Shown here in pieces: positions 812-59,498 of a DNA stretch of 64,000 bases. Numbering within the stretch: position 1 is the first letter of the stretch; each line of letters opens with the position of its first letter. The translations under genes were made by a program, and so were the position numbers. The notes under the pieces are model-generated. The model ran no database searches. It had not been told where the DNA came from and saw only the letters and a list, made by a program, of their open reading frames with translations. Source of the DNA: Candidatus Zixiibacteriota bacterium (GTDB lineage: Bacteria > Zixibacteria > MSB-5A5 > GN15 > FEB-12); the NCBI GenBank assembly GCA_036826635.1, contig DAISVY010000012.1:9170-73169 (forward strand). The letters are read 5' to 3'.

Positions 812-854
812 ACAAAAACAAGACCCGGTGGTAGCTGTTGGCCCCACCGGGTCT
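812..854 (-). terminator. Rho-independent terminator after the metallopeptidase gene
   Basis: An 11-bp perfect stem, AGACCCGGTGG (821-831) / CCACCGGGTCT (844-854), with a 12-nt loop. On the minus strand it is followed by TGTTTTTGT (820-812). It lies 32 nt downstream of the stop at 886. Confidence 0.65.
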
Positions 855-885
855 CGGACATTACCGCTATAGATTGGCGCGAAAC

Positions 886-6191: not shown

Positions 6192-6343
6192 GACCGGGCC
6201 TTCCACGGACTAACGCGAAGATTTATATACCGTCAACTTACGCAACAATCCCCCGACGGGAAAGAGCCTTGTTCAAATGACGTTGACTCCGAGCGTCCGA
6301 AGGGTTAGTATCCGACATAACACTGATGACTTGGGAGGCGATA

Positions 6344-37900: not shown

Positions 37901-38078
37901 GCCGCTCACCATCGGTCTCGGTGAAGGGGCATCATTGCGGGCTCCCATGGCGGTGGCGGTTATCGGCGGGCTGATCACTTCAACCGCCCTGACCCTGGCC
38001 GTCATACCGACGGTATATCACCTTCTGGCCGGTAAAGTACGGATTGAAACGGAGTCCACCACCCGGGCGCAGATATGA
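34983..38078 (+). CDS. RND (AcrB/HAE-type) efflux permease
   Basis: 1031 aa with a 12-TM, two-large-loop layout. Family blocks: ALGAGMLVDNAIVVMENV, MLAGIAVNDSIILVD, GQTRIRPIIMTSVTTILALLPL. Confidence 0.9.
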   Translation: MYKLARFSVKYPTTVLMVVLAVILLGYISFSRLGVDLFPDLNSPRLFIEIEAGERPPEEMEQQFVTQMEAVAARGNGVINVSSISRVGQALLTVEYTWQTDMDAAFLDLQKLVADFTQNSEADEITVSEHDPNADPVVVAVFSHPEIDDLDKLRQTAENIIRNELIRLPDVAAVDIVGAREREVEILTDPYTLEAHGLTASQLASTISSANRNMSGGSIVEMGIRYVLRGVGEFTSEDDIRNLIVAYETQEETGQPLKRIPTYLREVAEVHTVLSEPENIVRYNGQRCLALEVFREARANTVDAAASTVEQLEKLGRSLPGYELRVIQNQAGFIKSAITEVEETGLIGIILAVLVLYLFLRRIGVTVIISLAIPISIIATFNLMFFNDLSLNIMTLGGLALGAGMLVDNAIVVMENVFRHLEEGKPLTEAAVLGAGEVGGAITSSTLTTVVVFLPIVYLHGAAGELFRDQAWTVAYSLISSLFVALAVIPMLCSRLLKRGNRSVPTSSVSFPGYGRFLQKILKRRGLVITASLVLVILTALLIPTIGSEFMPRADQGDLYINLTLPEGTSLERTEGTVRNLEAVIDQKYGSQLSNIYSRVGPSGTSTSELEALSDENSAVMYLTPAVDSDLPTDELAAGIERELEKLPDVESQLTVQQTALQSILGTSSAPLVVEIKGKELDELSRLTDSVYARLSPMSELANIETSFEQGRPEIDIVVDRTVATQFSLTVEEVGSQVHDILSGTESGEMEINGEYADIIVRGPDVSLTELAGIMLETSSDRRVRLDEVARLVPAVSPREINRNNQTRVATVSASLVGDAPFDKVATAVKKAIADVPLPQQYSFAVTGEEELRQEAFGNLEFALLLAVILVYMVMAAQFESLLHPFVILLTIPLAGVGAVLLLLILGMPLNIMSFIGMIMLAGIAVNDSIILVDRINQNRRGGQDLDKAIINAGQTRIRPIIMTSVTTILALLPLTIGLGEGASLRAPMAVAVIGGLITSTALTLAVIPTVYHLLAGKVRIETESTTRAQI

Positions 38079-43544: not shown

Positions 43545-45206
43545 TCAGGCTTCCGGGTGCAGAGGAAAACGAAAGACGAAAGTTGTTCCCTGACCCGGTT
43601 CGCTGTTTATATCGACCTCGGCCCGGTGGTTGCTGATAATCTTCGCACAGATAACCAACCCGTAACCATGTCCCGTTTCCTTCGTCGTCAGATGAAATTT
43701 GAAAAGCTTCTTCTTGACTTCCGGAGTGATCCCCGAACCGTTATCGGAAATGGACAGGAGAACGGTGTCCCCTTCGACACTTGTCTTGACTTCGATATGA
43801 CCGTCGGGACGCCGGGTTTCGGCGACGGCATCAGCGGCGTTGTTGAGCACATTAAGTAACAGTTGTGCTATCTGATCGGTGTCCATTTCGAAAGACGGCA
43901 AGTTCGGCTCGAGGTCGGTCGAGATCGACACCCGCGTGAACTTTTTCTGCACCAATACGAAGGACAGCACATCGGTGACCGTGGAATTCAGACTGGCGAT
44001 GCTCTTGCATGCCTCCAGCCGGGTGTAGTCGGTCAAACCGGCCGTGTAGCGTTCCATCTTGCCGACATGGGATTTCAGCTTCTCGAGCGAGTTGGCCACT
44101 TTATCCATATTGCCCCGCGCCATAGCCATCTGGGCCAGTTCTACCCCGCCCAGAATGAGAGCCAGGAAGTTATTCAACTCGTGGGCGATGGACGAGGCCA
44201 TTACGCCCTTGTCGGCGAATTTTTCGAGGTCGAACAGCTTTTGCTCGTTCTCTTTTTGCGCCGTGACATCGTCCAGCGTAAAAACGAGATCGGATTCGCG
44301 TTCGTCGCGACGTTCAATAGAAGAAAACCGGACGTTATATATTCGCTCGAATTCGGGCCCTTTGGCCACCTGATTTTCTATGAAACTGCTGTGAGTTCCG
44401 GCCCGGGTTTTAAGTAACCGCCGCCCCCAACCGGGGAAAGCGTACTCGGGGAAAACGCTGTCCAGCGGCTGTCCGATAACCGAGTCGAAATCGGACACGT
44501 TGGGCAGACAGTCCCGAAGAATGCTCATACCGGCACTGTTCACTTTCTTGAGAGTATAGTCCTGCTCTCCGAAAACGAAAACACCCTGCCTGACGCTGTC
44601 CAGAATTTCCAGATACCATGCGTTCAGGCCCCGCATCTGCGTAATCAAAAAAGAATTGGCGATAAACGGCGCACTGGCGTTGGCAAGCGTACTCAACAAC
44701 TCAAGTTCACTGTCAGCCAGCGGCTTGTGGCTGATCTTCTCCCCCAGTCCGATCACGCCCCAATACCATTCCCCGTGGATCAGCGGAACCAGTACCTGAA
44801 CACCCGTTTCCTTCAGTCTCGCCAGGATTCGCTGAGCGTCATCCGGCAAATCTTCCCGATCAAAACAACATGGCCGGGGATCGGCCAGGAAATATTCGGA
44901 CAATTCCAATTGCTGACAATCCAGCCCTATTCCGGCAGCATCCTGAAAATGGCCGGTTCCGGAACAGATAGGCGGGCTGGCGCCGGCTTCCGGGTTGCGC
45001 ACCACGGCAATGACATCAGCCACGGAGAACTGCCCGGAAACGGTGAGAACCAACTGGTCGAGAAGACAACGGTAATCCGGTTTTTTTGAAAACTGCTCGG
45101 TTAGTTCGGCCAGCGCGTTGAGCGCCATGGCTTCAATATCCACCGAGGCCCGACGACGAACTGTCGCGGCACTCTCGTTCCGGACTGAATCTGTAATCTG
45201 TGACAT
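43545..45206 (-). CDS. Cytoplasmic GAF/PAS sensor histidine kinase
   Basis: 553 aa with no obvious TM segment. GAF-like N-terminal half, a PAS-like middle region, H-box SSIAHELNNFLALILGG, N box LLNVLNNAADA, G boxes DNGSGI and GHGYGL, and GQGTTFVFRFP. Confidence 0.85.
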   Translation of the reverse strand: MSQITDSVRNESAATVRRRASVDIEAMALNALAELTEQFSKKPDYRCLLDQLVLTVSGQFSVADVIAVVRNPEAGASPPICSGTGHFQDAAGIGLDCQQLELSEYFLADPRPCCFDREDLPDDAQRILARLKETGVQVLVPLIHGEWYWGVIGLGEKISHKPLADSELELLSTLANASAPFIANSFLITQMRGLNAWYLEILDSVRQGVFVFGEQDYTLKKVNSAGMSILRDCLPNVSDFDSVIGQPLDSVFPEYAFPGWGRRLLKTRAGTHSSFIENQVAKGPEFERIYNVRFSSIERRDERESDLVFTLDDVTAQKENEQKLFDLEKFADKGVMASSIAHELNNFLALILGGVELAQMAMARGNMDKVANSLEKLKSHVGKMERYTAGLTDYTRLEACKSIASLNSTVTDVLSFVLVQKKFTRVSISTDLEPNLPSFEMDTDQIAQLLLNVLNNAADAVAETRRPDGHIEVKTSVEGDTVLLSISDNGSGITPEVKKKLFKFHLTTKETGHGYGLVICAKIISNHRAEVDINSEPGQGTTFVFRFPLHPEA

Positions 45207-45209
45207 ATG

Positions 45210-45581
45210 CTAATACGTTATGCCGCACATGGCGGCCGCTTCCTTTTCATCGGATCGAATCGTGAGATAATCGGCCAGATCGAGCACCTCAAGAATATGC
45301 CGGATATGATCGGACACGTTGCACAAGACTATATCGCCGCCCCGCTCGCGAAAAGACTGGACAGTGCCAAGTATAGAACCAACCCCGGCCGATGACAAAA
45401 ACTCGAGGCGAGCCATATCGATGATGACGTACTTGTAACCTTTTTTCTCTCCGGTCGATATAATCTTGACCATCTCATGAGCGTTTTGATTGTCCAAAAC
45501 CGGTCCGGGGTCCACAACTACCGTATCGTCCCGCAAAACACGCTCTTTTATCTCTTCGTACCCCATCCTTATTGGCTCCAT
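45210..45581 (-). CDS. STAS-domain protein (anti-sigma-factor antagonist, SpoIIAA/RsbV-like)
   Basis: 123 aa. IIDMARLEFLSSAGVGSILG contains the conserved phosphorylatable Ser context. Also GGDIVLCNVSDHIRHILEVLDLADYLTI. Confidence 0.8.
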   Translation of the reverse strand: MEPIRMGYEEIKERVLRDDTVVVDPGPVLDNQNAHEMVKIISTGEKKGYKYVIIDMARLEFLSSAGVGSILGTVQSFRERGGDIVLCNVSDHIRHILEVLDLADYLTIRSDEKEAAAMCGITY

Positions 45582-46333
45582 TTCTTCTCGAGAGTAAGTT
45601 CGTTCATGGTCCCGTCCTTGCGACGATACGAAATGCGGTCAACGAGTCTGCTTAACATAGGCAGTCCAAAACCCCGTTTTTGACCACTTTTAGCCGAGGC
45701 CACAACATCCAGGTCCATCGAACGAGAAGTTGGATCAAACGGAATCCCGGGATCGGTGAAGGTCAAGACCATCATTTCATCGTAAGGACTGACCGTGAAA
45801 ACGATTTCGTCACCGACTTCCAGAGCGGCATAGCTCTGAATGTTAGTTGTCACCTCATAAAAAACCGTCCGCAGTTCGAACTCCAGAACCTCGGAGAGCC
45901 CCATATCCGAGAGAAAACTCCGAAATCTCATCCTGGCTCGCGCTATGCTGTCAACATCAGCATGGAAACGATCCTGATAAGTCTCCTCAAAATGATTTTG
46001 CTTCCGGCAACGGCCGCCGACATTCAGAGATCCCGTAGCATCTTCCTCGGGAAAGAATTCCCTGAGATCCAACGCCTGAAGGACCCGCATAAGACCCCGC
46101 GAGGCCGCTTTGAGCTTAAGGGGTACCCCGGCCGAATGACAAGTTTCGTAAAGTTGCCAGAGAATTCCCACCTGACGCGACTTGACATGGGCCAGTTTTG
46201 AGCAATCCAGAATTATAGCAGGAGGTTTCTGTCCCAGTAGTTTCGCCAGTTCTTCCTCAAAGGCAGCCATTCCCGTAACTGACATATCCCTGGGAACCTC
46301 TATTGTCACTTCCCCTTTTGTACTAGTTTGCAT
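45569..46333 (-). CDS. STAS domain fused to an RsbW/SpoIIAB-like serine kinase (HATPase) domain
   Basis: The N-terminal ~110 aa are STAS-like (ILDCSKLAHVKSRQVGILWQL...LKLKAASRGLMRVLQALDL). The C-terminal half is an anti-sigma kinase fold (ELRTVFYEVTTNIQSYA, FTDPGIPFDP, GFGLPMLSRLVD). ATG at 46333 is preceded by GAGAGGG. The track start at 46360 is an alternative. Confidence 0.7.
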   Translation of the reverse strand: MQTSTKGEVTIEVPRDMSVTGMAAFEEELAKLLGQKPPAIILDCSKLAHVKSRQVGILWQLYETCHSAGVPLKLKAASRGLMRVLQALDLREFFPEEDATGSLNVGGRCRKQNHFEETYQDRFHADVDSIARARMRFRSFLSDMGLSEVLEFELRTVFYEVTTNIQSYAALEVGDEIVFTVSPYDEMMVLTFTDPGIPFDPTSRSMDLDVVASAKSGQKRGFGLPMLSRLVDRISYRRKDGTMNELTLEKKWSQ

Positions 46334-47921
46334 GTACCCTCTCTTCATTCCTGTCAACATTTATATCGACTGAAAGCCCTTTCCACTTCATGGCCAGAAG
46401 CGTAATATCGTCGTATTGTGGTGCCGAACCGACGAAATCCCGGTGCCGGTCAAGAGTTTGACTGACCAGTCGGGGCGGATCCAGATCTTTGTAATCGCTT
46501 ACTATCTCTATAAATCTGTCCATACCAAACTCGTCGGCCGCTTCGTTCTGAGCTTCATTGACTCCGTCCGAATACTGAATAAGCCAATCGCCGCTGTTAA
46601 GCATCACATGTGCTTCTTCTATCCGTCGGGCAAAAGGTTCGGGTGGCATCATTCCCAAGGGATAGCCCCTGGTTTTTATCAATTCGGTCCGACCGCTCAG
46701 TCCGTCGATTCGAATCAGCGGGTTGTGTCCGGCTGACGCAAAATCGAACCGGCCCGATTTCTTATTCAAAAGACCGAAGAACATCGTCACGAACATCCCC
46801 TTCTTGATGTTCTGCAGTAACTCGCTGTTGACCTCCGAAAGCAGCCGGCCCGGTGTCCGGATCGAACGCGAAACCTGCCGCACGATATCACGGGTAAGAA
46901 GCATGACCAGCATACCCGGAAGCGACTTGCCTGACACGTCGGCTACGAGAAAACCAAGCTGCTCATCATCGAAATTGATGAAATCATAATAATCGCCGCC
47001 GACCTCCCGGGCGCTGTGATAGGAACCGGCAAACTCGAAATCCGACGCCGAAGGATAGGCACGCGGCAGGATATTGGCCTGGATTTCATGGGCGATTTCC
47101 AATTCTCGAGAAATGCGCTCGTTCTGTATCTTCTCCTGCTGAGCGCTCTGTAAGCGCGATCCCATAACCCGGAGAGTCTCCGCCAGATAGCCAAACTCGT
47201 TCTTACTGGTCACGGGAATATCCAGGGTCATATTATCTACCGAAACGTGCCGCAATTTATCGGTGATGATGCTGACCGGACGCAGTTTCCGATGCAGCAA
47301 CACCATGCCCACGATCATCCCCACCAGAACCATGAACAGAGTAGTGGAAGCCACGGCAATCACGGACGCCCGCCGCGCATCGGTGATCTCACGAACTGAA
47401 GAGGCCAGCCCCAGCCGGCCCAGCAGAATACCGTTTTCGACAATCGGCGTGGTAATATAGATCGTATCCCCGCGCTGGGCGAATCTCTCGTTTTCATGCA
47501 GAATCTCGCCGAAGTGTCCTTCGGGCGGCTCGGACATCTCGGCTTTGGAGATAACCTGTTTCAGATCGGTATGAGCCAGAAAGACCCGATCGGTACCGGC
47601 AATACCGGCCCAGTAAATATCGGGGTTGTCGACAGCGAGTTTCTTGCAAATGTTGTTAAGCAGCAAAGCATCCGGTTCGCCGGACGAAATGATATGCTTG
47701 CCCGCCATACCTGAAAAAGATCGGGCCTGAACCAGGAGTTTCTCAGCTACACTGCGAGTAACGGTGCCGACGAATTTATCGGTAATAACATAGCCGGTAA
47801 CAGCCATCAGGGCGAGAATCAGCAACGAAATATATAAGGAGAACTCAAACCGAATCGATTTGCGAAAATTTCTGGCTTCGGGCCAACTTGCCACCGGGCG
47901 GCCGGGCTCACTGTTGCTCAT
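46323..47921 (-). CDS. Membrane sensor PP2C phosphatase (SpoIIE/RsbU family) with periplasmic domain and HAMP
   Basis: 532 aa. TM1 (FSLYISLLILALMAVTGYVI), an extracytoplasmic region of about 150 aa, TM2, a HAMP-like linker, then PP2C blocks EIAHEIQANILP, GGDYYDF, VADVSGKSLPG, SDGVNEA. Confidence 0.85.
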   Translation of the reverse strand: MSNSEPGRPVASWPEARNFRKSIRFEFSLYISLLILALMAVTGYVITDKFVGTVTRSVAEKLLVQARSFSGMAGKHIISSGEPDALLLNNICKKLAVDNPDIYWAGIAGTDRVFLAHTDLKQVISKAEMSEPPEGHFGEILHENERFAQRGDTIYITTPIVENGILLGRLGLASSVREITDARRASVIAVASTTLFMVLVGMIVGMVLLHRKLRPVSIITDKLRHVSVDNMTLDIPVTSKNEFGYLAETLRVMGSRLQSAQQEKIQNERISRELEIAHEIQANILPRAYPSASDFEFAGSYHSAREVGGDYYDFINFDDEQLGFLVADVSGKSLPGMLVMLLTRDIVRQVSRSIRTPGRLLSEVNSELLQNIKKGMFVTMFFGLLNKKSGRFDFASAGHNPLIRIDGLSGRTELIKTRGYPLGMMPPEPFARRIEEAHVMLNSGDWLIQYSDGVNEAQNEAADEFGMDRFIEIVSDYKDLDPPRLVSQTLDRHRDFVGSAPQYDDITLLAMKWKGLSVDINVDRNEERVHAN

Positions 47922-49923
47922 AGGAAAGCTCTCTCAGTTTCAGAATCTCGGTTTCGGTGCGTTTGATGTAATCCTGAATAGCCTCGTTATCGGGATCAAG
48001 TCGGGCGGCCTTTTTCCATGTGGCCACGGCTTCCTGCAATTGGTTCTTTCCGTACAGTTCGATACCGACAAACTTATAGGCGTTGATCAAGTACTTTCGC
48101 ACCGACTGATAATCCGGCGCCAGACGTTCGACCCTCTCCCAGTTGGCAATTGCTTCACCCAGACGGCCGTTCTCAAAGGCGTCCTGCGCCGCCTTGTTGA
48201 CTCCTTCTATTTCTTTGCGCAATTCATCGCTAAGCACCACGGCTGTTTTGGGCGCAACCGCAACCGTATCAACCGACGGCTTGTGCATATCGTCCAGAAT
48301 CCGACGGCGCAGATCCAGACACCATTGGTGATCCGGGAAAAGAACCAAGGCCGAATCGACCGTCGCCAGGGCGGTTTTGAAGTTCTCGCCTACGAAAGCC
48401 ACCGAGGCTGTTTCGCGCAGGTGTTCGAATTCAACCCGCTTGATAGCCAACCGGACACTGGCGTTTTCATCGGCGAATTGACGGAGGCTCCGAACGAGTT
48501 CAAGGGCATCATCCACGTATCCATAGCTCAGAAGCGAATCGATATCCCACAGGCGTTCTCTTATCAGCTCGTCTTTGGCCACCGTCCGTTCGATAGCGGC
48601 ATCAGCCTGTTCCAGAATCCTTTGAGCCTGTTCCGAATTGGAAACGTCAGACAAAGCCAGATCGGCAAAATGCCGAGCGCCGAGGTAGTCCTTCCGGGCC
48701 AGCCGTTCCTGCGCCGACTTCAGATTCTTATCAAAGCGACCGACTCGTTCGGCCCGGTCAAGCCGCTCATGGGCTGTAAGGACCATCTCATAAATGGCGG
48801 TCGTGTCCATGTCATTACCGCGCGCCAGGAACAAGGCCCGATCAAGCATGGTGGCGGCCTGCACCAGATCTCCTTTATCAAGAAGCTCCCGGCCACGATC
48901 CACCAACTGCCCGACTGTCTGACGGTTGCGCTCGCCCAGCCGCGTGTTCATCAAATCGTTGAATTGCGACTCTCTCTCCCGGGTCCGGGCCAGCCGCCGT
49001 TCATTTACGGGTGTTCCGAAAGAAGTCGTCAGAGTGAACATATGCAGACTGCCGAGATCACGATCCACAAGGGCGTAATCGAACCTTAGCAGCTTATACT
49101 GTAAACCGACACCGAACGACAACTTGCCCTCACGGACACCACCGCGCAGATGGAGAAGCTCTTTGAAACTATACTCGACCCCGACAGCCAACCGGGGATC
49201 GATATCTTCTATCTTGGTAAGTCGGGCACAGAGCGTAGCCTCCTGTCCCCAGTCGGCCCCGGGCACCAACCCAAGCGCAACCCCCAGATCGAAACTGGTC
49301 GGATACTCGACCGTCTCTTCCGACAGCTTCATCCCGGGTTTCAACAGATTGCGACCTTCCGCGGTCACGATAAGGTGATCAAAAAACGTCGAGCCAAAAG
49401 CAAACCTGCGACTGACCGACAAAGCCATACCGGGCGACGAAGTCGCCGTGTAATCGTCGATAGAATGATGCTCCAGAGACAGGCTCATCCCGACAGCATA
49501 ACCGGCGATGAATCGTCCATAGGCAAGATTAAATCCGAGCCGGTTGTCGTCGGTCTCCCCCAGCAGAAGATTACCGGCGTCTCGCTTTTCTATCCCGCTG
49601 ACACCGAGCCGGAAAATACCCAAACCGAAAACACCGTAGTCAAGCGTGGGAATGGCTATGCCCAGATACTGGTAAGCAACATCGGAATCATACAACGTAC
49701 TGTGGAAACCGCCGAATTCATACTGTTGGGCATCAGCCAGTCGCGAGGCATTCCAGAACGGGGCCGTAGTGGCGTCACTTACGGAAAGAGCCGCCCCGCC
49801 CAGTGAGAGCTCACGAGCCCCGGCACCGAAACTGAACGGTGATTGCGTACCACCGTCGTCGGCCGCCATAGAAACGCCGAAGCTCAGCAAGACCACGAGT
49901 ATGATTGATCCAAGTCGCCTCAT
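47908..49923 (-). CDS. Outer-membrane beta-barrel-like domain (PorQ/PorV-like pattern) fused to a C-terminal TPR array
   Basis: 671 aa. Signal peptide. Residues about 25-305 have GARELSLGGAALSV...APFWNASRLA and alternating beta-strand periodicity ending ...SLHMFTLTTSF. Residues about 330-671 are helical TPR-like repeats (GRLGEAIANWERVERLAPDYQ..., LQEAVATWKKAARLDPDN). ATGA overlap with the giant gene's stop. Confidence 0.6.
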   Translation of the reverse strand: MRRLGSIILVVLLSFGVSMAADDGGTQSPFSFGAGARELSLGGAALSVSDATTAPFWNASRLADAQQYEFGGFHSTLYDSDVAYQYLGIAIPTLDYGVFGLGIFRLGVSGIEKRDAGNLLLGETDDNRLGFNLAYGRFIAGYAVGMSLSLEHHSIDDYTATSSPGMALSVSRRFAFGSTFFDHLIVTAEGRNLLKPGMKLSEETVEYPTSFDLGVALGLVPGADWGQEATLCARLTKIEDIDPRLAVGVEYSFKELLHLRGGVREGKLSFGVGLQYKLLRFDYALVDRDLGSLHMFTLTTSFGTPVNERRLARTRERESQFNDLMNTRLGERNRQTVGQLVDRGRELLDKGDLVQAATMLDRALFLARGNDMDTTAIYEMVLTAHERLDRAERVGRFDKNLKSAQERLARKDYLGARHFADLALSDVSNSEQAQRILEQADAAIERTVAKDELIRERLWDIDSLLSYGYVDDALELVRSLRQFADENASVRLAIKRVEFEHLRETASVAFVGENFKTALATVDSALVLFPDHQWCLDLRRRILDDMHKPSVDTVAVAPKTAVVLSDELRKEIEGVNKAAQDAFENGRLGEAIANWERVERLAPDYQSVRKYLINAYKFVGIELYGKNQLQEAVATWKKAARLDPDNEAIQDYIKRTETEILKLRELSYEQQ

Positions 49924-52900
49924 CGTATTATCGCAATCTTTCGCTTATGCTCTTCGGTCCGTCCCGAAACATAATGCGCCGTTATCCGGCAGAAGTATGT
50001 CCCCGGAACAACATCACAACCCGCGTCATTGTCGCCCGACCAGATATCCGTCTGCTGCGACCCGGCTTCGCGGAAAGCATTCTCGGCTACCGTTTTCACC
50101 GCTTCGCCGGTAATCGAGAACAACTCAATATCCACATGGGCATCTTCGGACAACACGTACCCGATAGTGGTAGCACCGTCCTGAGCCGGGTTGAACGGGT
50201 TGGGATAATTCGTAAATGATTGCCCCAGGCTGGCCTCGGTGATCGATATCTCGGTACCGTACAGCGGGTATGACGTGCCGCTCTCCAAAACCGGATATAT
50301 CGCGGTTGCCATGTTTTTGTCCGCAATGTCGAACGAAGTGGAGTCCTCGAAGAGAATCAGATAATCACCCCGACGAGCGTCATCTCGTACGTCACAAACA
50401 ACGCTTACCGGCACCGTTCCCCCGGAAGAGACATCGTAACCGCCGTCGATGGTAAACAGCAAGGTATCACCGTTCAGAACCGAATCGGTGGCGACAACCT
50501 CGTCATCGAACACCAGATGTACGGCCCGGAAAATCTCCGCACCCGCACCGGCCTCAAGATGATCGCTGTATCGCCGGACAACTTTCCCCTGCCAGGAAGC
50601 GACGACCAGATCGCCTTCAAGCGTGGGGCTGTCATATTCCAGATCGCCGGAGAAAACGATCAATCCGGTTTGACCGGCACAAGTAAGTTGAACAGGGGCG
50701 GTAACGGTTGACAACACCGGTCGCCCGGCCGGCTGGAAGATATCCGTTTCTTCCGTTCTGAAGGGGAAACCGTCGGCACACCCGTCGGCCACCTCTATGC
50801 CGGGGCTCCGCGTAGTATCGCTGGCGTCACGCACCGTGATAGCCGGGGAAGCCGATATCTCAAGGACAAAATTATCATACGGCACGTCGGCCTCGATATC
50901 GCCGTACAAACCGACCGTGACACTGTCGCCGGGGTTAAGCAATACACCTTCGGTGCCCATTTCAAACGTAACCGCACCGATCAACGGCTCGATAAACGAC
51001 TGGTAAGTGACAGGAGCATCGCCAATCGATATTCCTACCCGGTCAAAGAGAAATTCCGGGCGCAACATAGTACCATCGGCATCAAGCACGGATACGAGAA
51101 TGTCACCGATACGCACCGATGAATAGTCCGTGGTGAACGGATAAACCAGCGCCAGTTCCATAAGAACCAGAGAATCAACCCCGCCGACAACGGCCGCAGA
51201 CAGCGGAGCCGTAACACAAAGCTGCGGTGCCCCGGCCGGATATCGCAATTGTGTCCAGCCGGTTCTAATGGGGAAAACATCACCGGTCGCAAGCATCGTA
51301 TCAGGAGAAACCTGAAGCGGTGAACCGGAGCTCAGATCGCGGACGGTGAAGCAGGTACTGTCGGTTATAAGCAGCGAAAAACCATCCAGGGAAGTCTCCT
51401 CGACCAGCGACAAAATAATCGTAAGCGAGTCAATCTCACCGGCGCTGAGTGTAAGCGGTGAAGTCAGGGATAAGTTAACATGGGTCGAGTCGGTCCTGAA
51501 ATCGGCCACATGTCCCACCACCACCTGTTGTCTGAGAGCACTGGCACTTTGCAAAATCGCCGCCGCTTCCACGGGATCACCGGCCAAATCGGCAAGGCAG
51601 AAAGACAGACCGGAAAGCTGAATCTGCGAGGTCCCGACATCGCCTCCGTGGCGGAACCTGAGCATAACGGCTTCGACTCCATTCTGCCCGTAGTTTGCGG
51701 TCGAACCGAGCAGCGATACGGAAGAAGTTGCCAGCGCCTGTGACGGATCGTCCAGACGGCACGAGGCCGTTCTGAGCGGAAAACTTACGGCCGGATTAAT
51801 AGAAACCGGCAACAGCGTATTAGCATCCACGAGCACGGTCGAGGCGGCACTCTCCAGAGCCAGGGCAAAACTGGAAGCCGACGCGGCACTGTCGATGCTC
51901 ACGATAAGCATAAGATTCGAAGACTTGCCCGGAGCAATTAGAACAGGCTCCGTGAAGGTCAGCAACAAATCGGACGTATGAGGAACTTCTTCGACCGCCG
52001 CCACTATAACATACCCGGCCGCTATTACCACCCGGCTAAGAGCTTCATCCGCCGCCTGGGGTGTACCAAAACCGTCTTCAACCCGCAGGACCAGACTGTC
52101 CAACCGCAAATCGGCTCCGGTTGCGGCCGTGTCCGGGTGCGTGATGGCTATACTCATCGGGAACACGCTTGACTGCCCCCGGGTGACCGAGGTCGGCATG
52201 GAATTGATAAGCTCGACCAGTACGTCCGCGGGGGATGTCTGGATATGGACCGCTGATGTCTGGATCACCGCGGATGAATCGGGCAAAGACTCGGCAACGG
52301 CACGCAACTGCCAGGATACTTCACCGGGCTGAAGAGCCGTATAATAGAAGACGAACTCGGCCGATGTACCGCTGGACACGGCGACCGGTCCGCTGGCGCT
52401 GCTGTCAAAAACGACCAGCTCGGAATCGCTTATTCCGACGACCTGAGCTTGCACATCGTCAATCTGAATCGGCAGCAGGTTAGTCGCGTTGAAATGCACC
52501 GCGATAGTCTGCCCCACCGAATAACTTTCCGCCAAAGGCTCATAACCGGCCCGCAGACTGGAATTAGATATCGTGAATCGGTTTTCACCGCTCAGAGCGG
52601 CGTCATGAGGTCCGTCGTTGGCCGAAGCATACTGACAGCCGTTTATCGGAATTTCACCCTGGAACTCCGCCCCGGGAGCGGCTGAAGCGGCCACATCGCC
52701 CACCACGAATAATACCGGCGGGGTACTGTTAACAGCCAGATCAAGCGTTGTTATGTTCCACTCTGTCCCGGTATAGGTAAACGTACCCAGCAACAGGTCA
52801 CTTGAACTCCAATCCTCACTGGCATCGTTGTCTTTCCATAATTCCAGCGAGGAAATATCACTGGTATCCGCATCCGCCAGATTGGCCAGCCTCAAAGATT

Positions 52901-55900
52901 GCAGAAAATCCGTTTGGTCACCGTTAAAGGCCGGACGGAATGAGAAGAGAGTGACCGAAGTATCCCCCGGGCTGAGCGTTCGCGCCGGGAGATCCCGTAC
53001 ATTATACTGCGCTGCAATTGAACCATCGACCACAAGATAAGCACCGCTGGTGAGCGGAAGGTCACCGTTGATATTAACCGGCGAGGAGAAAATGATATCG
53101 TCCTGCCGCGGGACAACCACGGCCAGACTGTCGGAGTCTATCACGTTCTGCGGCACGTCGACCAGTACCCAGAAATACAGCAACGATTCCGGAGGCAGGG
53201 CAATGTTCAAACCGGAGAGTTGCAATTCTCCATCGTAGAAACTGGCACTGGCGGCCAGCGGATCACCGTCAAGCAAACGATTGTTGTCGGCGTCGTAGTA
53301 CAACGACACCTGCCCGACCTCATAGTCGGCAAACGACATAGTCGATACCGAGCGCGTGGTGTTGGTCAGACGAAGGGTTTGCAGCGTCTGTTCCTGACCG
53401 ACATAACCATTATAAAGAGCAAAAGTGAGAATGACATTCTCAGCGCTGCCCGGCAACACGTTGACCGAAGAAGCCGGTATGGAAATAACCGTGATCCGGT
53501 CCGAAGGCAAAACAAGATGGGCCGAGGGATTGCTCAGCGCAACGTCGTCGGGTCCGATGGTCCCGGAAAGGTACTCTATCCCCTGACGCGGTATCCGGAA
53601 CTGCAGGGTCCCGCCCTTAAACTGACCGCTGCCGATACTCGCCGTTACGATCATTCGATTGTGCAGTGCGTTAAGCGGCCAGGACAGCTCGGCGAGGGTC
53701 CAGGATAATCCGTTGTATACAAACTGCCCTACCAGTTCTTCATCACCATCGAAACCGTCGGCGGCGGCATCAAACCACAACCGCAGACTCATCAGATCGC
53801 TTGATTCCTCGAAAGTACCGATATTAACCAGGGTTATCTGCTTGAGATGCCCGACTGCATACCCGTCCCGTGGCAACTCGATATCGAGTACCGGCTCAAC
53901 AGTACAACCGCCGAACAGCGTAGAGCCTTCCACCTCGTTCACGGTCACGGCCGCCGAGGGAAAAGCATCAACGGTGAAATCATCGGGATTGGTTACGGGG
54001 AATACCCCGGTGACACGTTCGCCATCGGAAGTATACACATCGGTGCTGTCGTCGATGGAGATATTGATGCGGTTGCCGTTTTTGGCATTGGCGAGACTGA
54101 TCGCCGCCACGACCGACAGGCTCAGCGAATCTCCGACTCCGCCAATAGTGAACCCGTCCGTCACAAACACCGCCCGACCGTCAGAGACCAACGCCGAAGC
54201 TACCAGCGTATCCGCCGCCCCTATGGCCATCGGATTTCCGTCCAGGTCCGCGTACAACATGAGGCTGTCGATCTGGCTGTCCAGTTGGGATTGATCGGCA
54301 CCGTCAGGATCGGCGGCTACCAACTGACAAAGAAGACTGTCCACAGACACCGAATTGGCGTAACTGTTTTTCAACCGCAGACACATAATGGGATCACTGT
54401 ATTCCCCCGGCGTCAGGCGATGATCCAAAAGAGGCAGATTCGCTACGGTAAGTGCCTGTTCCGTCTGAATCGAAATCGTATCGGCCGGTTCCAGAACAAT
54501 GTCAATCGGACCGTCGTTACCGGACGACATCCGAACCCCCTCAATCGGCACTTCAAAGGCCACCGTGGCACCCTGAACCGGGTAAGCAGCCAGACCCGCG
54601 GCCAGATAAAAACGAGTCAGCGTGTCCGTCATGACCGTCGATAACCCGCTGAGTGTCCATTGACTGCCCGTGAAACTCAACTCGCCGAGACGTGTTTCCT
54701 CGGCAGAGCCTCCCCAGACACCATTGCCATCGTCAACGTAAAGCACCAGCGAATCGATATCATCGACCTGAGCTGTCCCCATATTGGTTACGGTGAATAC
54801 ATTGAGTTCGTCGGCAGCGTAACCGTTGCGGGGGACATCGAGAATCATGACGTTGTACACCGTATCGCCGGGGGACATAATCTCTACTCCGGTCGAAACA
54901 ACGCCATACTGAGCGGCAATGGAACCGTCGAACACGGCATAGCCGAGCGAATTGGCGGTATCCGGTCCCACCACTGTGGTAGCATCCGCGGTCGTTATAT
55001 CCGTAGCGGTAAAGAGCTCCAAATCAATTGAGTCGCCGTCACGAGGATACATTCCGGCGGTTACCGTAACGAGCAGGGTCCTTCCGGAATCCGGACCGAT
55101 AGTCAGCGGTCCCAGCGGCAAATTGACAACGGCGGTATCGTAAACCGCGGTCACCAGCAGGCTGTCACTGCCGCTCAGTAGTGAATCGTTGTCGATATCA
55201 AGGTACAGAGCAATCGAATCGACATTCGACAGCCGTTGTTCGGCCGTACCCACCCCGCGTGAAGCGTCGCGCACGGTCAGATCGGTTACGGTTTTGGCGT
55301 GATCGAAGTAGTTCTCGATACGGAAAGCCAGCACCACAGCATCCGCCTGATTCGGTCGCAACCGGCTTTGTCCCAGGGCAATGGTGGTCAGGTGCAGTTC
55401 ATCCACCTGAATGGTACCGCTGGAATCGGCAATATCTCTTATGTTGCTGGTGGCGCGTATCTGACCGTTGCCGGGACGGCTGGCGATAAACAGCCCGGTA
55501 GTGTCGATGCTGCCGATCCGCCCGACCGAACGCCAGGTAATTTCTCCGGCCGAGGTCACGTTGCTGTCGGCATCATAACCGGTCACGCTAAACTGTACCG
55601 AGTCGCCCAGACTTACGGCAGCCGTATCCGGCGAGACAACGATTCTGACCAGTTCGCCCGACACAACTTCCAGGTAAGCGCTTGAATCCGTCACGCCCAG
55701 GTCGGAAGAAACCGTCACCTGCCCCGTACCCGTAGTCGTGGCCTCGAAAAGACCGTCGGTACCAATCGTCCCCAGAGACGCGGTCAGATCCCAGGTAATA
55801 GTCCCCATATCTCGCTGATTATCATCAGCGTCATAACCCAGTACTTCATACTGAAGCGTGGAATCGGCGGACACAATGGCCGAGTCGGGCGATATTGCCA

Positions 55901-58900
55901 AACGAGCCAGGTCACCGACTACAACTTCAAGGTAGGCACTTGAATCGACCGCGCCCAGATTGGACGAGGCCGTCACCTGCCCGGTCCCAACCGTCGTAGC
56001 TTCGAAAAGACCATCGGTATCAATTGTCCCCAGAGACGCGGTCAAATTCCAGGTAATAGTTCCCGGATGGCGTTCGTTGCCATCGGCGTCATAGCCCACC
56101 ACCTCGTACTGAAGCGTAGAATCGGCGGACAGGATAGCCGAGTCCGGTGAAATAGTGATACTGGCCAGTTCGCCCGGTACCACTTTAAGGTAAGCGCTCG
56201 AATCCGTCACCCCCAGATCGGAGGAGGCCGTCACCTGCCCCGTACCCGTAGTCGTGGCTTCGAAAAGACCATCGGTACCAATCGTCCCCAGAGACGCGGT
56301 CAGATCCCAGGTGATCGTACCCGCATTCCGTTCGTTGCCGTCGGCGTCATAGCCGAGGACTTCATACTGAAGAGTGGAATCAGTCGAAACGACCGCCGAA
56401 TCGGGTAAGACAACAAGGTAACTCAGCGACCCGACAGTTACCACAATCGGTCCGACCGTATCAGCCAGACCGCCGCCGGAAGCTACTATCCATCCGCTTC
56501 CAACGGTAGTCGGGGAAAACAATCCGCCGGTCGAAATCGTGCCGATATCCCCCAGAACCGACCAGGCAGGGACCACGGCGGGAACGCTCTGGTTGCCGTC
56601 GGCATCGAGCGACTTCACGTAGAATTGCAGCGAGCTGTCGGTGGTGAGGGTAGCCGAAGTCGGAGACACCGACAACTTAGCGGGATGACCTGCCGTACAG
56701 GTAATCACGCCCGTACTATCGATAATCGTCGGCGAAGAGCGAGCGACAACACGCCCCGTTCCCGGTTTGGTGAGAATCATGGTCGTGGAAGTACCGACCG
56801 AATCGGACAGATGACCAATACCATCGGCCCCGATAAGGAACCACGAAACCGAGACATCGCCCAACTCCCACCAGAGATCGCTATAACCGCGCGCATACAA
56901 AACTGTCGTGTCATTGTCCGTAGCAAGGGTGGTATCACCCACCACCGTACCATCTTCAAGCTGGATTTGTACGTGCGTAAAGAAATTCGATACATGAACG
57001 CGGGCCGAGTCACTCAGGCCGCCATGGTCGGCCACAACCCAGTACCAACCGTAAACAACCCCTGCTTTGTATAAGCCGGTCCCGGACACGCTGCCGCTGA
57101 CATCGGAAGTGCTCCAGGTTACGGTACTCGTGAGGCCGCTGACCAGGTTAGAGTCGCTGTCCTTACCCGTAGCTGAGAACTGAACCGAATCCAGTCGGTG
57201 AATCGTTACTTCTTCCGGGGTAACCCGAAGCGTTACCGGATCGCCGGGAATGACCCAAATAGTGTCGGTGGTATCGACCGGTCCGAGATCACTGGAAACC
57301 CGAATGAAACCCACCCCCGCCGTCTGCGCCTCGAAGAGCCCGGTCGCGTCGATCAAACCGATCCCGTCTATGACCTGCCACGTCAGGCTACCGTGTTCGG
57401 ACACCTCGTTGCCGTTAGCGTCGTAGCCGGTCACGCTGAACTGACGGGTAGAATCGGCCGAGACCGTATCGCGGTCGGGGGTAATGGCCAGACTGACCAT
57501 GCTGCCGGACACAACTTCCAGGAATATGGTTGAATCCGTCAGCCCAAGGCTGGTATCGCTTACCACTATTCGACCCGAGCCTGACAAATCAGGAGTAAAA
57601 AGACCGGTGGCATCGATTGAACCGGTGGCGAACGTATGCGTCCAGACCGGGTTATCCACCGCCACCGTATCCCCTTCGTTGTTCACCGCCACTATCTCGA
57701 ACTGGTAGGTGGAATCGGCAAACAGGGAATCGTATTCCGGGACGATTTCAAAACTGCTTATTCCGGCGATTTCGTGAGCGCCCATATCCGGGGCGGTACC
57801 CAGATAGGTATAACCCAGATCCATACCGGCGTCGACAGCCGGAGAATTGGAGGCCAGCCTGAAATCACTGGCCGCCGTATCCATGAAAAGCGGGTCGGCC
57901 GATATTCCTCCGGCCGAATCGACCGGACCGTCGTAATGACCGTTGGCATTATCCCAAAGGTCATTGAAACCGCAGACGTTGTCGACATCGGCGTGGATAC
58001 CCTTGTCGTTCCAGGCAATGATGTTATTGAAGGCGCGCAATGTCTGGACACTGGATTGACACTCTATACCATTCCTGTCACAAAGGACTATCGTATTTCC
58101 ATATAACCGATTGTTCTCACCGGCATCGCGGTTATTGATACCCTGACTATTACACCGGGCGACGATGTTGCGGAGTATGAGATTGGCACTCCCTTCCAAC
58201 TGAAGGCCATCCTTGCCGACCTCGTGAATATAGCAATCCGAAATCCGACAGGAGTCTCCCTGCAGCATTATCCCGTCTTCGTTGCCGGCGGTTATCTCCA
58301 GCCCTTCCAGAAAGACATGATCACTATCGATGACGATAACGTTGTCTACTACCTCGTCACCGTCAATGAGCACCGAAGCATTCTCGTAGGCCCGGTATAT
58401 AATCGGAAAAGCGGCGGTTCCGTCGGTGTGGAAAGACAGCGACGTCGACAACACGTACGTACCGGCAAGGATGTTGACGGTATCCCCCGGTTGCAGAGTC
58501 GCCGTAATCTCGCCGTTATCGATTGACGCCCAGGCATCGGCGATACTCAATCCGTCGTTACCGTCGTCACCGACTGGACTGACATAAAAAGCCCGGCCGC
58601 CCGCATATTCCACGGCTCCGATATCGGGAGCGTTGCCGGTGTAAGCATCCCCGATATCAATACCGGCATCAATGACCGGAGATGTCGCCTGCACACTGAA
58701 ATCACCCGAGGCGGGATCGACGAAAAGCGGGTCGACATAGATACTCCCGGCCGAATCGGTGGCACCACCGCCGTAGTCACTGGTCGTGTTGTTCCAGAAG
58801 CAATTGAAGGCGCAAACATTACCCGACAGAGCGTCAAACCCCAGGTTGTTACCGGAAAACACGTTGTTTATGGCCCGGCCCGTGACAACTGTCGACCGGA

Positions 58901-59498
58901 TATAAAGACCTCTCAACCCGTTGCCGTGGAATACGTTGTTGTAATGCTCGTTGTATTCACCGGTAGGATCGTTGTCTAATCCCGATTCGCTGTTGAACGC
59001 AAATACGTTCCTCTTGAAGCAATTGTAACTTCCGTGGACATAAATGCCGTCCGCCCCGTTGTTGTGCACGTAACAATCGGAAATCACGCAAGAGTCGGAT
59101 TCGACAAACATCCCCTGTATCTGGGAATTGTAAATGTTCAGCCTTTCAAGCCTGGTGAATTTCCCTTCCATGGAAACGGGCGCGAATGCCTGCCAGTTAC
59201 CGTTAAGATAAGACCAGGCGGTATCGTCGCCGCGATAGACAATCGGGTCCGCAGCCGTACCATCGGTTATCAGGCGCATCGTCCCGGCGAGCACATACGT
59301 ACCCGGCAGAACATACACCGTATCTCCGGGTACAAGCACACCGGTCTGATCACCGTTATCGAGCGACAACCAGGCGCTTTCCGAAGAGAGCCCATCGTCG
59401 AAATCGTTCCCGGTCGGGGAGACATAATAAGTAGTAGCTCCGACGCTCCGGACCAGAACGGCAGAAATGAAAAATACGACGAGGAATGCTTTGCGCAT
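49920..59498 (-). CDS. Giant (3192 aa) T9SS-sorted surface protein: 2 parallel beta-helix modules, 9 Ig-like (Big_2-type) domains, about 1730 aa of unassigned repeat modules, and a C-terminal sorting domain
   Basis: Signal peptide MRKAFLVVFFISAVLVRSVGA. Residues 23-577 hold two paralogous right-handed beta-helix/DUF1565-like modules (YYVSPTGND..., FYVSPVGDD...). Residues 578-1365 are nine ~86-aa Ig-like domains. Residues 1366-3096 are repeated ~155-170-aa modules with no family I can name. Residues 3097-3192, NYPNPFNPAQDGATTIGYVL...PGTYFCRI...KIAIIR, form the sorting domain (nt 49923-50210). Confidence 0.85.
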   Translation of the reverse strand: MRKAFLVVFFISAVLVRSVGATTYYVSPTGNDFDDGLSSESAWLSLDNGDQTGVLVPGDTVYVLPGTYVLAGTMRLITDGTAADPIVYRGDDTAWSYLNGNWQAFAPVSMEGKFTRLERLNIYNSQIQGMFVESDSCVISDCYVHNNGADGIYVHGSYNCFKRNVFAFNSESGLDNDPTGEYNEHYNNVFHGNGLRGLYIRSTVVTGRAINNVFSGNNLGFDALSGNVCAFNCFWNNTTSDYGGGATDSAGSIYVDPLFVDPASGDFSVQATSPVIDAGIDIGDAYTGNAPDIGAVEYAGGRAFYVSPVGDDGNDGLSIADAWASIDNGEITATLQPGDTVNILAGTYVLSTSLSFHTDGTAAFPIIYRAYENASVLIDGDEVVDNVIVIDSDHVFLEGLEITAGNEDGIMLQGDSCRISDCYIHEVGKDGLQLEGSANLILRNIVARCNSQGINNRDAGENNRLYGNTIVLCDRNGIECQSSVQTLRAFNNIIAWNDKGIHADVDNVCGFNDLWDNANGHYDGPVDSAGGISADPLFMDTAASDFRLASNSPAVDAGMDLGYTYLGTAPDMGAHEIAGISSFEIVPEYDSLFADSTYQFEIVAVNNEGDTVAVDNPVWTHTFATGSIDATGLFTPDLSGSGRIVVSDTSLGLTDSTIFLEVVSGSMVSLAITPDRDTVSADSTRQFSVTGYDANGNEVSEHGSLTWQVIDGIGLIDATGLFEAQTAGVGFIRVSSDLGPVDTTDTIWVIPGDPVTLRVTPEEVTIHRLDSVQFSATGKDSDSNLVSGLTSTVTWSTSDVSGSVSGTGLYKAGVVYGWYWVVADHGGLSDSARVHVSNFFTHVQIQLEDGTVVGDTTLATDNDTTVLYARGYSDLWWELGDVSVSWFLIGADGIGHLSDSVGTSTTMILTKPGTGRVVARSSPTIIDSTGVITCTAGHPAKLSVSPTSATLTTDSSLQFYVKSLDADGNQSVPAVVPAWSVLGDIGTISTGGLFSPTTVGSGWIVASGGGLADTVGPIVVTVGSLSYLVVLPDSAVVSTDSTLQYEVLGYDADGNERNAGTITWDLTASLGTIGTDGLFEATTTGTGQVTASSDLGVTDSSAYLKVVPGELASITISPDSAILSADSTLQYEVVGYDADGNERHPGTITWNLTASLGTIDTDGLFEATTVGTGQVTASSNLGAVDSSAYLEVVVGDLARLAISPDSAIVSADSTLQYEVLGYDADDNQRDMGTITWDLTASLGTIGTDGLFEATTTGTGQVTVSSDLGVTDSSAYLEVVSGELVRIVVSPDTAAVSLGDSVQFSVTGYDADSNVTSAGEITWRSVGRIGSIDTTGLFIASRPGNGQIRATSNIRDIADSSGTIQVDELHLTTIALGQSRLRPNQADAVVLAFRIENYFDHAKTVTDLTVRDASRGVGTAEQRLSNVDSIALYLDIDNDSLLSGSDSLLVTAVYDTAVVNLPLGPLTIGPDSGRTLLVTVTAGMYPRDGDSIDLELFTATDITTADATTVVGPDTANSLGYAVFDGSIAAQYGVVSTGVEIMSPGDTVYNVMILDVPRNGYAADELNVFTVTNMGTAQVDDIDSLVLYVDDGNGVWGGSAEETRLGELSFTGSQWTLSGLSTVMTDTLTRFYLAAGLAAYPVQGATVAFEVPIEGVRMSSGNDGPIDIVLEPADTISIQTEQALTVANLPLLDHRLTPGEYSDPIMCLRLKNSYANSVSVDSLLCQLVAADPDGADQSQLDSQIDSLMLYADLDGNPMAIGAADTLVASALVSDGRAVFVTDGFTIGGVGDSLSLSVVAAISLANAKNGNRINISIDDSTDVYTSDGERVTGVFPVTNPDDFTVDAFPSAAVTVNEVEGSTLFGGCTVEPVLDIELPRDGYAVGHLKQITLVNIGTFEESSDLMSLRLWFDAAADGFDGDEELVGQFVYNGLSWTLAELSWPLNALHNRMIVTASIGSGQFKGGTLQFRIPRQGIEYLSGTIGPDDVALSNPSAHLVLPSDRITVISIPASSVNVLPGSAENVILTFALYNGYVGQEQTLQTLRLTNTTRSVSTMSFADYEVGQVSLYYDADNNRLLDGDPLAASASFYDGELQLSGLNIALPPESLLYFWVLVDVPQNVIDSDSLAVVVPRQDDIIFSSPVNINGDLPLTSGAYLVVDGSIAAQYNVRDLPARTLSPGDTSVTLFSFRPAFNGDQTDFLQSLRLANLADADTSDISSLELWKDNDASEDWSSSDLLLGTFTYTGTEWNITTLDLAVNSTPPVLFVVGDVAASAAPGAEFQGEIPINGCQYASANDGPHDAALSGENRFTISNSSLRAGYEPLAESYSVGQTIAVHFNATNLLPIQIDDVQAQVVGISDSELVVFDSSASGPVAVSSGTSAEFVFYYTALQPGEVSWQLRAVAESLPDSSAVIQTSAVHIQTSPADVLVELINSMPTSVTRGQSSVFPMSIAITHPDTAATGADLRLDSLVLRVEDGFGTPQAADEALSRVVIAAGYVIVAAVEEVPHTSDLLLTFTEPVLIAPGKSSNLMLIVSIDSAASASSFALALESAASTVLVDANTLLPVSINPAVSFPLRTASCRLDDPSQALATSSVSLLGSTANYGQNGVEAVMLRFRHGGDVGTSQIQLSGLSFCLADLAGDPVEAAAILQSASALRQQVVVGHVADFRTDSTHVNLSLTSPLTLSAGEIDSLTIILSLVEETSLDGFSLLITDSTCFTVRDLSSGSPLQVSPDTMLATGDVFPIRTGWTQLRYPAGAPQLCVTAPLSAAVVGGVDSLVLMELALVYPFTTDYSSVRIGDILVSVLDADGTMLRPEFLFDRVGISIGDAPVTYQSFIEPLIGAVTFEMGTEGVLLNPGDSVTVGLYGDIEADVPYDNFVLEISASPAITVRDASDTTRSPGIEVADGCADGFPFRTEETDIFQPAGRPVLSTVTAPVQLTCAGQTGLIVFSGDLEYDSPTLEGDLVVASWQGKVVRRYSDHLEAGAGAEIFRAVHLVFDDEVVATDSVLNGDTLLFTIDGGYDVSSGGTVPVSVVCDVRDDARRGDYLILFEDSTSFDIADKNMATAIYPVLESGTSYPLYGTEISITEASLGQSFTNYPNPFNPAQDGATTIGYVLSEDAHVDIELFSITGEAVKTVAENAFREAGSQQTDIWSGDNDAGCDVVPGTYFCRITAHYVSGRTEEHKRKIAIIR
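50211..55403 (-). repeat. Unassigned repeat-module region of the giant protein (about ten modules of 155-170 aa)
   Basis: A recurrent skeleton is visible in the translation, e.g. L.FTV(T/L)N.G...(D/S)DI.SL.L(Y/W).D...LG.(F/L).(F/Y).G..W.(L/I)...F.(I/V)P..G.....NDGP.D in modules 2, 4 and 6. Modules 1, 3 and 5 carry a second subtype (..(F/L).(I/L).N.(F/Y)......SI.LY.D.D.N). Confidence 0.6.
55404..57767 (-). repeat. Coding tandem array of nine Ig-like (Big_2-type) domains
   Basis: Units of 86, 87, 86, 99, 86, 86, 86, 86 and 86 aa. They share ...SPD...V..(A)DST.QF.V.GYDA.GN......TW....G.ID..GLF.A...G.G.V...S. Confidence 0.75.
55662..56435 (-). repeat. Three highly similar 258-bp (86-aa) tandem units (Ig domains 6-8)
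   Basis: The anchor GTCACCTG recurs at 55714, 55972 and 56230, an exact 258-nt period. Long identical runs include CGAAAAGACC.TCGGTA.CAAT.GTCCCCAGAGACGCGGTCA. The proteins differ at only a few positions (DSTLQYEV(L/V)GYDAD(G/D)N(E/Q)R...GLFEATT(T/V)GTGQVT). Confidence 0.85.

Follow-up and report, generated by a model that had tools for sequence, protein, structure and literature searches.

A conserved chain of beta-sandwich modules in a giant, putatively type IX-sorted protein of Zixibacteria and the gene cluster linked to it

Type IX secretion system (T9SS) cargo can be anchored on an adjacent, dedicated barrel, as is known for PorP-PG1035 and SprF-SprB (PMC9143113). In these systems the surface protein is very large and repetitive and has a C-terminal domain (CTD) of the T9SS type; its gene lies directly upstream of that of an outer-membrane beta-barrel from a T9SS accessory family, and the presumed logic is that the cargo stays on its own barrel. 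Another system, SiaABCD, controls aggregation by partner switching and makes use of a HAMP-PP2C phosphatase, an RsbW-type kinase and a STAS target. Here we describe a locus that shares elements with both. It lies in a stretch of 64,000 nucleotides from Candidatus Zixiibacteriota bacterium (GenBank assembly GCA_036826635.1, contig DAISVY010000012.1, positions 9,170 to 73,169 of the forward strand), which is called the window below. The locus is built around the gene of a giant protein whose C-terminal half consists mainly of related beta-sandwich modules in a fixed order. Zixibacteria and their relatives are uncultured and widespread in sediments and soils, and to our knowledge almost nothing is known about their cell surfaces.

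The giant protein starts with a signal peptide, two right-handed beta-helix domains and an array of Big_2 immunoglobulin (Ig)-like domains, which are followed by the units A1-B1-A2-B2-A3-B3-Ig-C1-C2-C3-C4-CTD (coordinates in Table 1). The last Big_2 match of Pfam ends at residue 1353. A preliminary description of the window had placed an array of repeated modules at 50211-55403, which corresponds to residues 1366-3096; the module boundaries used here run from window position 50214 to 55415. It had proposed three alternating A-B pairs, then one Ig-like unit of ~110 amino acids (aa), four A-like modules and a sorting domain, and this layout was upheld. When 120-aa fragments of the protein were compared with the whole protein by BLASTP, the matches were collinear, had E-values as low as 1e-14 and lay at offsets of ~317 and ~634 aa. 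They define three super-repeats (residues 1362-1680, 1676-2000 and 1996-2316), and a second repeat series of ~165 aa was found near residues 2513, 2676 and 2849. The three A-B pairs could be aligned end to end with MAFFT at 26-30% identity and with 41 invariant columns. Using the window's three copies alone, the A half was matched to the B half by hhalign with 92% (E 7e-7).

Each module was also compared with each other module by hhalign, using family profiles of 76 sequences. The A modules matched each other with 99.9-100% (E 1e-33 to 1e-37), the B modules with 100% (E 1e-46 to 1e-51) and the four later C modules with 99.6-99.9% (E 1e-24 to 1e-32). Matches between A and B reached 98-99% (E 1e-13 to 1e-18). 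A1 and A2 matched the C modules with 87-97% (E 1e-6 to 3e-11), A3 was uneven, with 92% for C4 and 4-66% for C1-C3, and similarity between B and C was weak. The Ig-like unit, which is 108 aa long, and the CTD were not related to the A, B or C modules in these profile comparisons. Judged by sequence comparison, A, B and C are three subtypes of one superfamily of ten ~160-aa modules. The homology of the modules, like their alternation in three pairs, was supported by self-BLASTP, MAFFT and family profiles alike.

The hexapeptide SIAAQY, said to be shared identically by two modules, occurs at exactly two places in the protein, residues 1526 and 2160, which are the starts of B1 and B3. The end motif quoted for the B modules, F.(I/V)P followed by NDGP.D, was found exactly in B1, whereas in B2 the place of NDGP.D is taken by SGTIGPDD, and B3 reads F...IP. 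No repeats at the DNA level were found inside the module region, so that the module repeats must be of ancient origin. A recent tandem duplication of the modules was ruled out, as DNA repeats are confined to the Big_2 array, and no further module copies were found elsewhere in the 64-kb window. In the Big_2 array, three tandem units of 258 nt (86 aa) at 55620-56405 (-) are 76-82% identical at the DNA level. They are a recent expansion of the Ig array, unlike the ancient and fixed module region beside them.

Next to the internal comparisons, the modules were compared with known families. Neither Pfam nor NCBIfam gave a match in residues 1362-3095 (Pfam E<=1). Pfam searches with 41 orthologous A-B pairs gave no family match except for one weak hit to BNR_assoc_N (E 0.025) in one member, and the profile of these 41 sequences had 0 matches at E<=10 among 177,635 PDB sequences. 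The earlier view that no curated family covers the modules was thus confirmed. Their supposed CARDB likeness was not. A DUF11/CARDB test profile was made from 182 sequences taken from the N-terminal heads of family members, and over all ten modules hhalign gave 0.2-10% for CARDB (PF07705) and DUF11 (PF01345), which rules these families out for A, B and C. Likewise, Big_2 (PF02368) was rejected with at most 2% against the Big_2 profile. Only the 108-aa unit (residues 2315-2422) matched the DUF11/CARDB profile, with 93%, E 2e-7 and 76-104 columns; this membership rests on profile-profile comparison, as single-sequence hmmscan against Pfam gave no hit. The unit is an ordinary Ig domain of the DUF11/CARDB type. 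Because no match was obtained in Pfam, in PDB sequences or with the DUF11/CARDB profile, the modules represent an unannotated domain superfamily with three subtypes.

The fold of the modules was predicted with AlphaFold2. The model of A1-B1, made from 41 orthologues, has two all-beta domains in a confident mutual orientation (pLDDT 95.4, pTM 0.86), each with about seven main strands and a C-terminal extension of ~40 residues. Because of this pTM, the A-B pair looks like a rigid unit in the model. A second model, of residues 2315-3192 (36 sequences), consists of six beta-sandwich domains in a string (pLDDT 92.4, pTM 0.54), and the boundaries of the Ig unit, C1-C4 and the CTD were taken from it. 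Foldseek searches against PDB returned only generic tandem beta-sandwich neighbours with TM of at most 0.4. E was ~1e-6 at best when the pair was used, and the six-domain chain reached ~1e-16. Among these neighbours were integrin alpha legs, ClfB, RbmA, neuropilin b1b2, macroglobulin (MG) domains of macroglobulin and complement proteins, ciliary Ig-chain proteins and a surface-layer (S-layer) protein. The structure search of BFVD returned nothing specific. Furthermore, we looked for calcium loops of the DxDxDG or EF-hand-like type, in which 12 residues carry Asp or Asn at the first, third and fifth position and are closed by an acidic residue. In 43 of 76 orthologues of A1, position 73 of the module holds such an EF-hand-like loop, D-x-D-x-D-x(6)-D, compared to 1% of shuffles; in each of the other modules it is present in 0-10 of 76. 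Calcium-binding loops as a general property of all modules were therefore ruled out, as the loop is frequent in A1 only. The loop hints at calcium stabilisation and is a lead rather than a general feature.

To determine the extent of the family, a protein library was searched exhaustively by HMMER with a profile of the three pairs. This gave 684 representatives of 50%-identity clusters at E<=1e-3 and at least 287 at E<=1e-30, with the window protein as the top match, identical to library protein P0001. When encoding contigs were looked up, none of the genes recorded there had precisely this product. A word-indexed protein search with a 639-aa query gave nothing at E<=1e-3, and as the exhaustive search found 684 representatives, this empty result reflects a limit of the index and not absence. 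The complete order of 12 units, from A1 to the CTD, was found in 77 of the 150 representatives listed. The remaining ones are mostly fragments truncated by contig ends or variants with two or four A-B pairs, and among the 150, nearly all variants that reach the C terminus keep Ig-C1-C4-CTD. One further library protein, P0062 (5134 aa, from a Logan assembly), has 17 B-like modules and no A, C, Ig or CTD units. The B module thus also occurs as a free-standing repeat in another architecture.

The lengths within the conserved part are nearly constant. Downstream of the third pair the median length is 876 aa; of the 98 proteins with three pairs, about 80 fall within 848-882 aa, and the shorter ones are truncated. 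Module lengths have interquartile ranges of 0-6 aa, at only 28-42% identity. In contrast, the N-terminal part varies from 0 to ~1900 aa, and the heads differ among homologues, with DUF11 arrays, CARDB, Beta_helix/NosD, Big_2, He_PIG, CBM96 and several DUFs. Orthologues of pair 1 in different species are 34-54% identical, compared to 26-30% between the pairs inside one protein, and each module position has orthologues of its own.

Relatives were also searched in one genome per GTDB species by C-terminal alignment, seeded on a motif of the CTD, and 190 were confirmed. Matches with 35-52% identity (best match 52%) all come from metagenome-assembled genomes (MAGs) of Candidatus Zixiibacteriota/GN15, some of which carry other labels. 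With a best match of 52%, the Zixibacteria genome behind the window most likely has no close representative in this set. Matches with 22-27% identity belong to MAGs under the labels Krumholzibacteriota, Eisenbacteria and Latescibacteria, and to a few others. There are one to two copies per genome: among the complete Zixibacteria chromosomes with the locus, CP070674.1 has two loci, and CP070756.1, OY760907.1 and OY969724.1 have one each. The two loci of CP070674.1 (L023 and L035) are ~80 kb apart and are paralogous as whole loci, each with genes for a barrel-TPR protein and a phosphatase. Ten homologue clusters carried no meaningful names other than 'uncharacterized repeat protein (TIGR01451 family)', a name that is due to DUF11 domains in the head. 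Literature searches on Zixibacteria with T9SS, on giant proteins in these phyla and on T9SS with partner switching gave nothing relevant. Giant surface proteins made of beta-sandwiches and ending in a T9SS-type tail, as this one is predicted to be, are a known kind; the domain superfamily, its fixed, phylum-spanning architecture and the conserved five-gene cluster are new, as we found no description of them.

The CTD is the best-conserved part of the family, with 50% mean identity. Residues 3098-3174 matched the T9SS type A model TIGR04183 with 18.9 bits, below the cut-off of 23. In NCBIfam the CTD also hit the models for the C-terminal domains of PorU and a T9SS-dependent protease, and FlgD_ig hits were obtained in 6 of 14 homologues. 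The type B CTD model, as in SprB, was absent among the NCBIfam hits at E<=1. Directly downstream, the stop codon of the giant gene overlaps the start codon of a partner gene (ATGA). The partner matched the PorV_fam model NF033709 over positions 9-326 of 326 (E 4e-18, 66 bits, cut-off 90), with weaker hits to the PorV2 and PorQ models and TPR hits in the remainder. A barrel-TPR gene is located directly downstream in 65 of 65 loci, and typically start and stop codons overlap or abut. Elsewhere in the window, 886-4632 (-) encodes a 1248-aa protein in which a metalloprotease-like HExxH region of the MXAN_6640 family occurs together with a bona fide T9SS type A domain, which reaches 40.2 bits with TIGR04183 and exceeds the cut-off. 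This is probably a second T9SS cargo, and because of its type A domain the organism appears to use the T9SS sorting signal.

We consider it reasonably likely that residues 1362-3095 form a conserved stalk or scaffold by which a T9SS-anchored surface protein presents variable heads. The giant protein would be exported by Sec via its N-terminal signal peptide and would cross the outer membrane by a type IX-like pathway that recognises the CTD. The CTD would then hold the protein at the surface, probably via the PorV/PorQ-like barrel from the overlapping gene downstream, on the model of PorP-PG1035 and SprF-SprB. From there, the module chain of fixed length would project the lineage-specific head outward, in this protein the two beta-helix domains and the Big_2 array. 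The preliminary description had called the modules a possible adhesin or binding repeat, for which we found no direct support. The fixed number and order of the modules, their near-invariant lengths, their positional orthology and the variable heads rather point to a structural scaffold than to a ligand-binding or expandable array. The anatomy given in that description was right in all main points, while its interpretation was upheld in part.

Several points weigh against a stalk. Both the CTD and the barrel scored under the curated NCBIfam cut-offs, and no T9SS core genes were seen in the 64-kb window, the source genome not having been searched for them. The geometry between modules outside the A-B pair was not predicted with confidence, and in Foldseek the neighbours of single modules include beta-sandwiches that bind carbohydrates, for example the N-terminal carbohydrate-binding module of sialidases. 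In addition, the positional conservation of every module across phyla, together with a signalling operon, suggests that the core does more than extend.

This operon follows the barrel gene and encodes a membrane-bound HAMP-SpoIIE (PP2C) phosphatase, a fusion of a STAS anti-sigma antagonist with an RsbW-type kinase, and a sensor histidine kinase (Table 1). The analysis covered 10 kb to either side of each homologue; synteny was counted only for loci with enough downstream DNA, and the fusion and the histidine kinase were scored at E<=1e-8. The phosphatase was conserved in 59 of 59 loci, the fusion in 43 of 56 and the histidine kinase in 38 of 54, whereas the upstream TldD/PmbA genes were not conserved across loci. 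All five genes are also present in L058, a relative with 25% identity on an unclassified MAG chromosome outside Zixibacteria. There, a periplasmic sCache domain is part of the phosphatase, and the equivalent of the histidine kinase is a GAF histidine kinase. The order within the fusion is STAS-kinase in the window (45569-46360) and kinase-STAS in L058 (16047-17153), which suggests independent fusions or a domain swap. At 276-1940 (+) of L058, directly upstream of the giant homologue, we found a membrane glycosyltransferase of the PMT_2 type (dolichyl-phosphate-mannose protein mannosyltransferase-like), in this one locus only. This enzyme could glycosylate the surface protein.

Table 1. Positions of the giant gene, the parts of its product and the conserved downstream genes in the window
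Feature	Window position	Strand	Residues	Details and evidence
Giant protein gene	49920..59498	-		3192 aa; open reading frame list and translation; Pfam, NCBIfam
Sec-type signal peptide	59436-59498	-	1-21	read from sequence
Variable N-terminal head, two right-handed beta-helix domains	57765..59435	-	~22-578	Beta_helix, NosD, DUF5123 hits; domains recognised at ~30-560
Big_2 Ig-like array	55416..57764	-	~579-1361	Big_2 hits
Module A1	54933..55415	-	1362-1522	profiles; AlphaFold pair model
Module B1	54459..54932	-	1523-1680	starts DGSIAAQY, ends SGNDGPID; profiles, pair model
Module A2	53973..54458	-	1681-1842	profiles, alignment
Module B2	53499..53972	-	1843-2000	profiles, alignment
Module A3	53031..53498	-	2001-2156	profiles, alignment
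Module B3	52557..53030	-	2157-2314	starts DGSIAAQY, ends SANDGPHD; profiles, alignment
Ig-type domain, DUF11/CARDB type	52233..52556	-	2315-2422	108 aa; hhalign; AlphaFold model
Module C1, A-like	51747..52232	-	2423-2584	profiles; AlphaFold model
Module C2, A-like	51237..51746	-	2585-2754	profiles; AlphaFold model
Module C3, A-like	50742..51236	-	2755-2919	profiles; AlphaFold model
Module C4, A-like	50214..50741	-	2920-3095	profiles; AlphaFold model
CTD, putative T9SS type A / FlgD-Ig-like	49923..50213	-	3096-3192	sub-threshold TIGR04183; FlgD_ig hits of homologues
Partner protein	47908..49923	-		671 aa; signal peptide, putative PorV/PorQ-family outer-membrane barrel (32-302), ~370-aa helical/TPR extension
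HAMP-SpoIIE (PP2C) phosphatase, membrane-bound	46323..47921	-		532 aa; Pfam; SiaA-like, WalK-like N-terminus
STAS anti-sigma antagonist and RsbW-type kinase (HATPase_c_2) fusion	45569..46360	-		263 aa; Pfam/NCBIfam
Sensor histidine kinase, last gene of conserved cluster	43545..45206	-		553 aa; Pfam/NCBIfam

The conservation of these genes leaves room for the giant protein to be the outer arm of an envelope-spanning sensor, in which signals would pass from the PorV/Q-TPR protein to the HAMP-PP2C periplasmic sensor and on to the STAS/kinase partner switch. We regard this as unlikely, though as an explanation that stays alive, because strict positional conservation and an invariant signalling operon suggest more than spacing. 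The five genes stay syntenic between Zixibacteria (35-52% identity) and L058 (25%) despite the swapped order of kinase and STAS, the TPR tail of the barrel should be periplasmic, and the phosphatase resembles SiaA (NCBIfam SiaA model, E 1e-8, 34 bits, cut-off 700) and in L058 includes a periplasmic domain of the Cache type. Synteny alone, however, does not prove a physical signalling chain, as the signalling genes could merely regulate expression or secretion of the surface protein, and no sigma factor, diguanylate cyclase or response regulator was seen as an output in the cluster. A wider proposal, to which we give a similarly small chance, is that the five genes form an undescribed envelope-spanning system for surface sensing or regulated adhesion in candidate phyla of the Fibrobacteres-Chlorobi-Bacteroidetes (FCB) group. 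The module chain would then be a mechanical or conformational transmitter whose state reaches the cytoplasmic partner switch across the outer membrane.

Equally improbable in our view is that the modules are carbohydrate-binding or adhesive units and the array a working adhesin instead of a stalk. Single domains superposed best on the carbohydrate-binding domain at the N terminus of Bacteroidetes GH33 sialidases (4fj6 and 9db6; ~185 columns, root-mean-square deviation 5.3-5.5; 4fj6: 185 columns, 5.5), discoidin-type domains were matched as well, and the weak BNR_assoc_N hit in 1 of 41 orthologues has the same direction. These structural matches are generic, however, with TM <=0.4 and E of ~1e-5 to 1e-6, and what is conserved is mainly motifs of Asp, Asn, Gly and Pro, of which several lie close to module ends. 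P0062, made of 17 B-like modules, resembles what is often seen in binding repeats, whereas the number, order and length of the modules in the family studied here are fixed with positional orthologues, unlike in expandable binding arrays. Moreover, the variation expected for specificity sits in the N-terminal heads.

T9SS-secreted S-layer proteins exist in Tannerella. Self-assembly of the conserved core into a surface layer or sheath decorated by the heads is the least probable explanation. In its favour are the phylum-wide fixed domain count, the one or two copies per genome and the archaeal S-layer protein 7ptp, which turned up with the generic matches to chains of Ig domains. Against it are a very large protein with a highly variable N terminus, no specific structural match among those found, nothing that points to high expression, and a dedicated anchoring barrel and signalling operon that are foreign to known S-layer loci.

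Other genes of the window were noted in passing. At 38075-42772 (+) there is an open reading frame of 1565 aa with a complete AcrB/RND transporter (ACR_tran, residues 1-1019) and an ABC-transporter ATPase domain (residues 1294-1438), which is either an unusual fusion or the result of a lost stop codon between two genes. Two further reading frames, at 28972-32346 (+) with 1124 aa and at 6326-7918 (+) with 530 aa, had no NCBIfam match at E<=1e-5. The former is located directly upstream of a TolC / RND-adaptor / AcrB efflux cluster.

The stalk that we favour would be encoded by what is the largest gene in many of these genomes, with a fixed phylum-spanning architecture that is coupled to a T9SS-type barrel and a partner-switching module. 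The analysis provides the basis for three domain models (A, B and C) that annotators could build and a confident two-domain target for structural biologists. It also offers a testable hypothesis on how these bacteria present and regulate heads that bind or degrade polysaccharides. The conserved signalling operon is the most intriguing part, and if the signalling link were true, it would be a new case in which a T9SS accessory barrel takes part in communication across the outer membrane.

Compared to known domains, the modules resemble the CARDB/DUF11 E-set Ig-like domains in being all-beta sandwiches with an alternating hydrophobic strand that ends in Asn-x-Gly. Such domains fill the heads of many family members, and the 108-aa unit belongs there. 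A, B and C, on the other hand, are ~50% longer and have the C-terminal extension of ~40 aa with DGDxxD or NDGPxD motifs. With BNR_assoc_N of GH33 sialidases the structural fit is moderate, while sequence similarity is insignificant and there is no sialidase context here. Among the better Foldseek matches were the thigh and calf legs of integrin alpha and the MG domains of alpha-2-macroglobulin and complement. Like the core, these scaffolds have a fixed number of diverged, position-specific beta-sandwich domains and no expandable array. The core, however, lacks thioester, bait and propeller elements and is not related to these scaffolds in sequence, and the structural scores are generic (TM 0.1-0.4).

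At the level of the gene cluster, the locus differs from SiaABCD in that kinase and STAS are fused, that there is no diguanylate cyclase and that the partner switch is linked to a pair of T9SS cargo and barrel. Compared to SprB/SprF and PG1035/PorP, the barrel is PorV/PorQ-like with a long TPR tail and not PorP/SprF-like. In contrast to SprB, the CTD is type-A-like or FlgD-Ig-like and not type B, and there is no relation between the repeat modules. Zixibacteria and allied candidate phyla, instead of Bacteroidetes, are the hosts, and to the pair of surface protein and barrel the cluster described here adds a partner-switching module and a histidine kinase.

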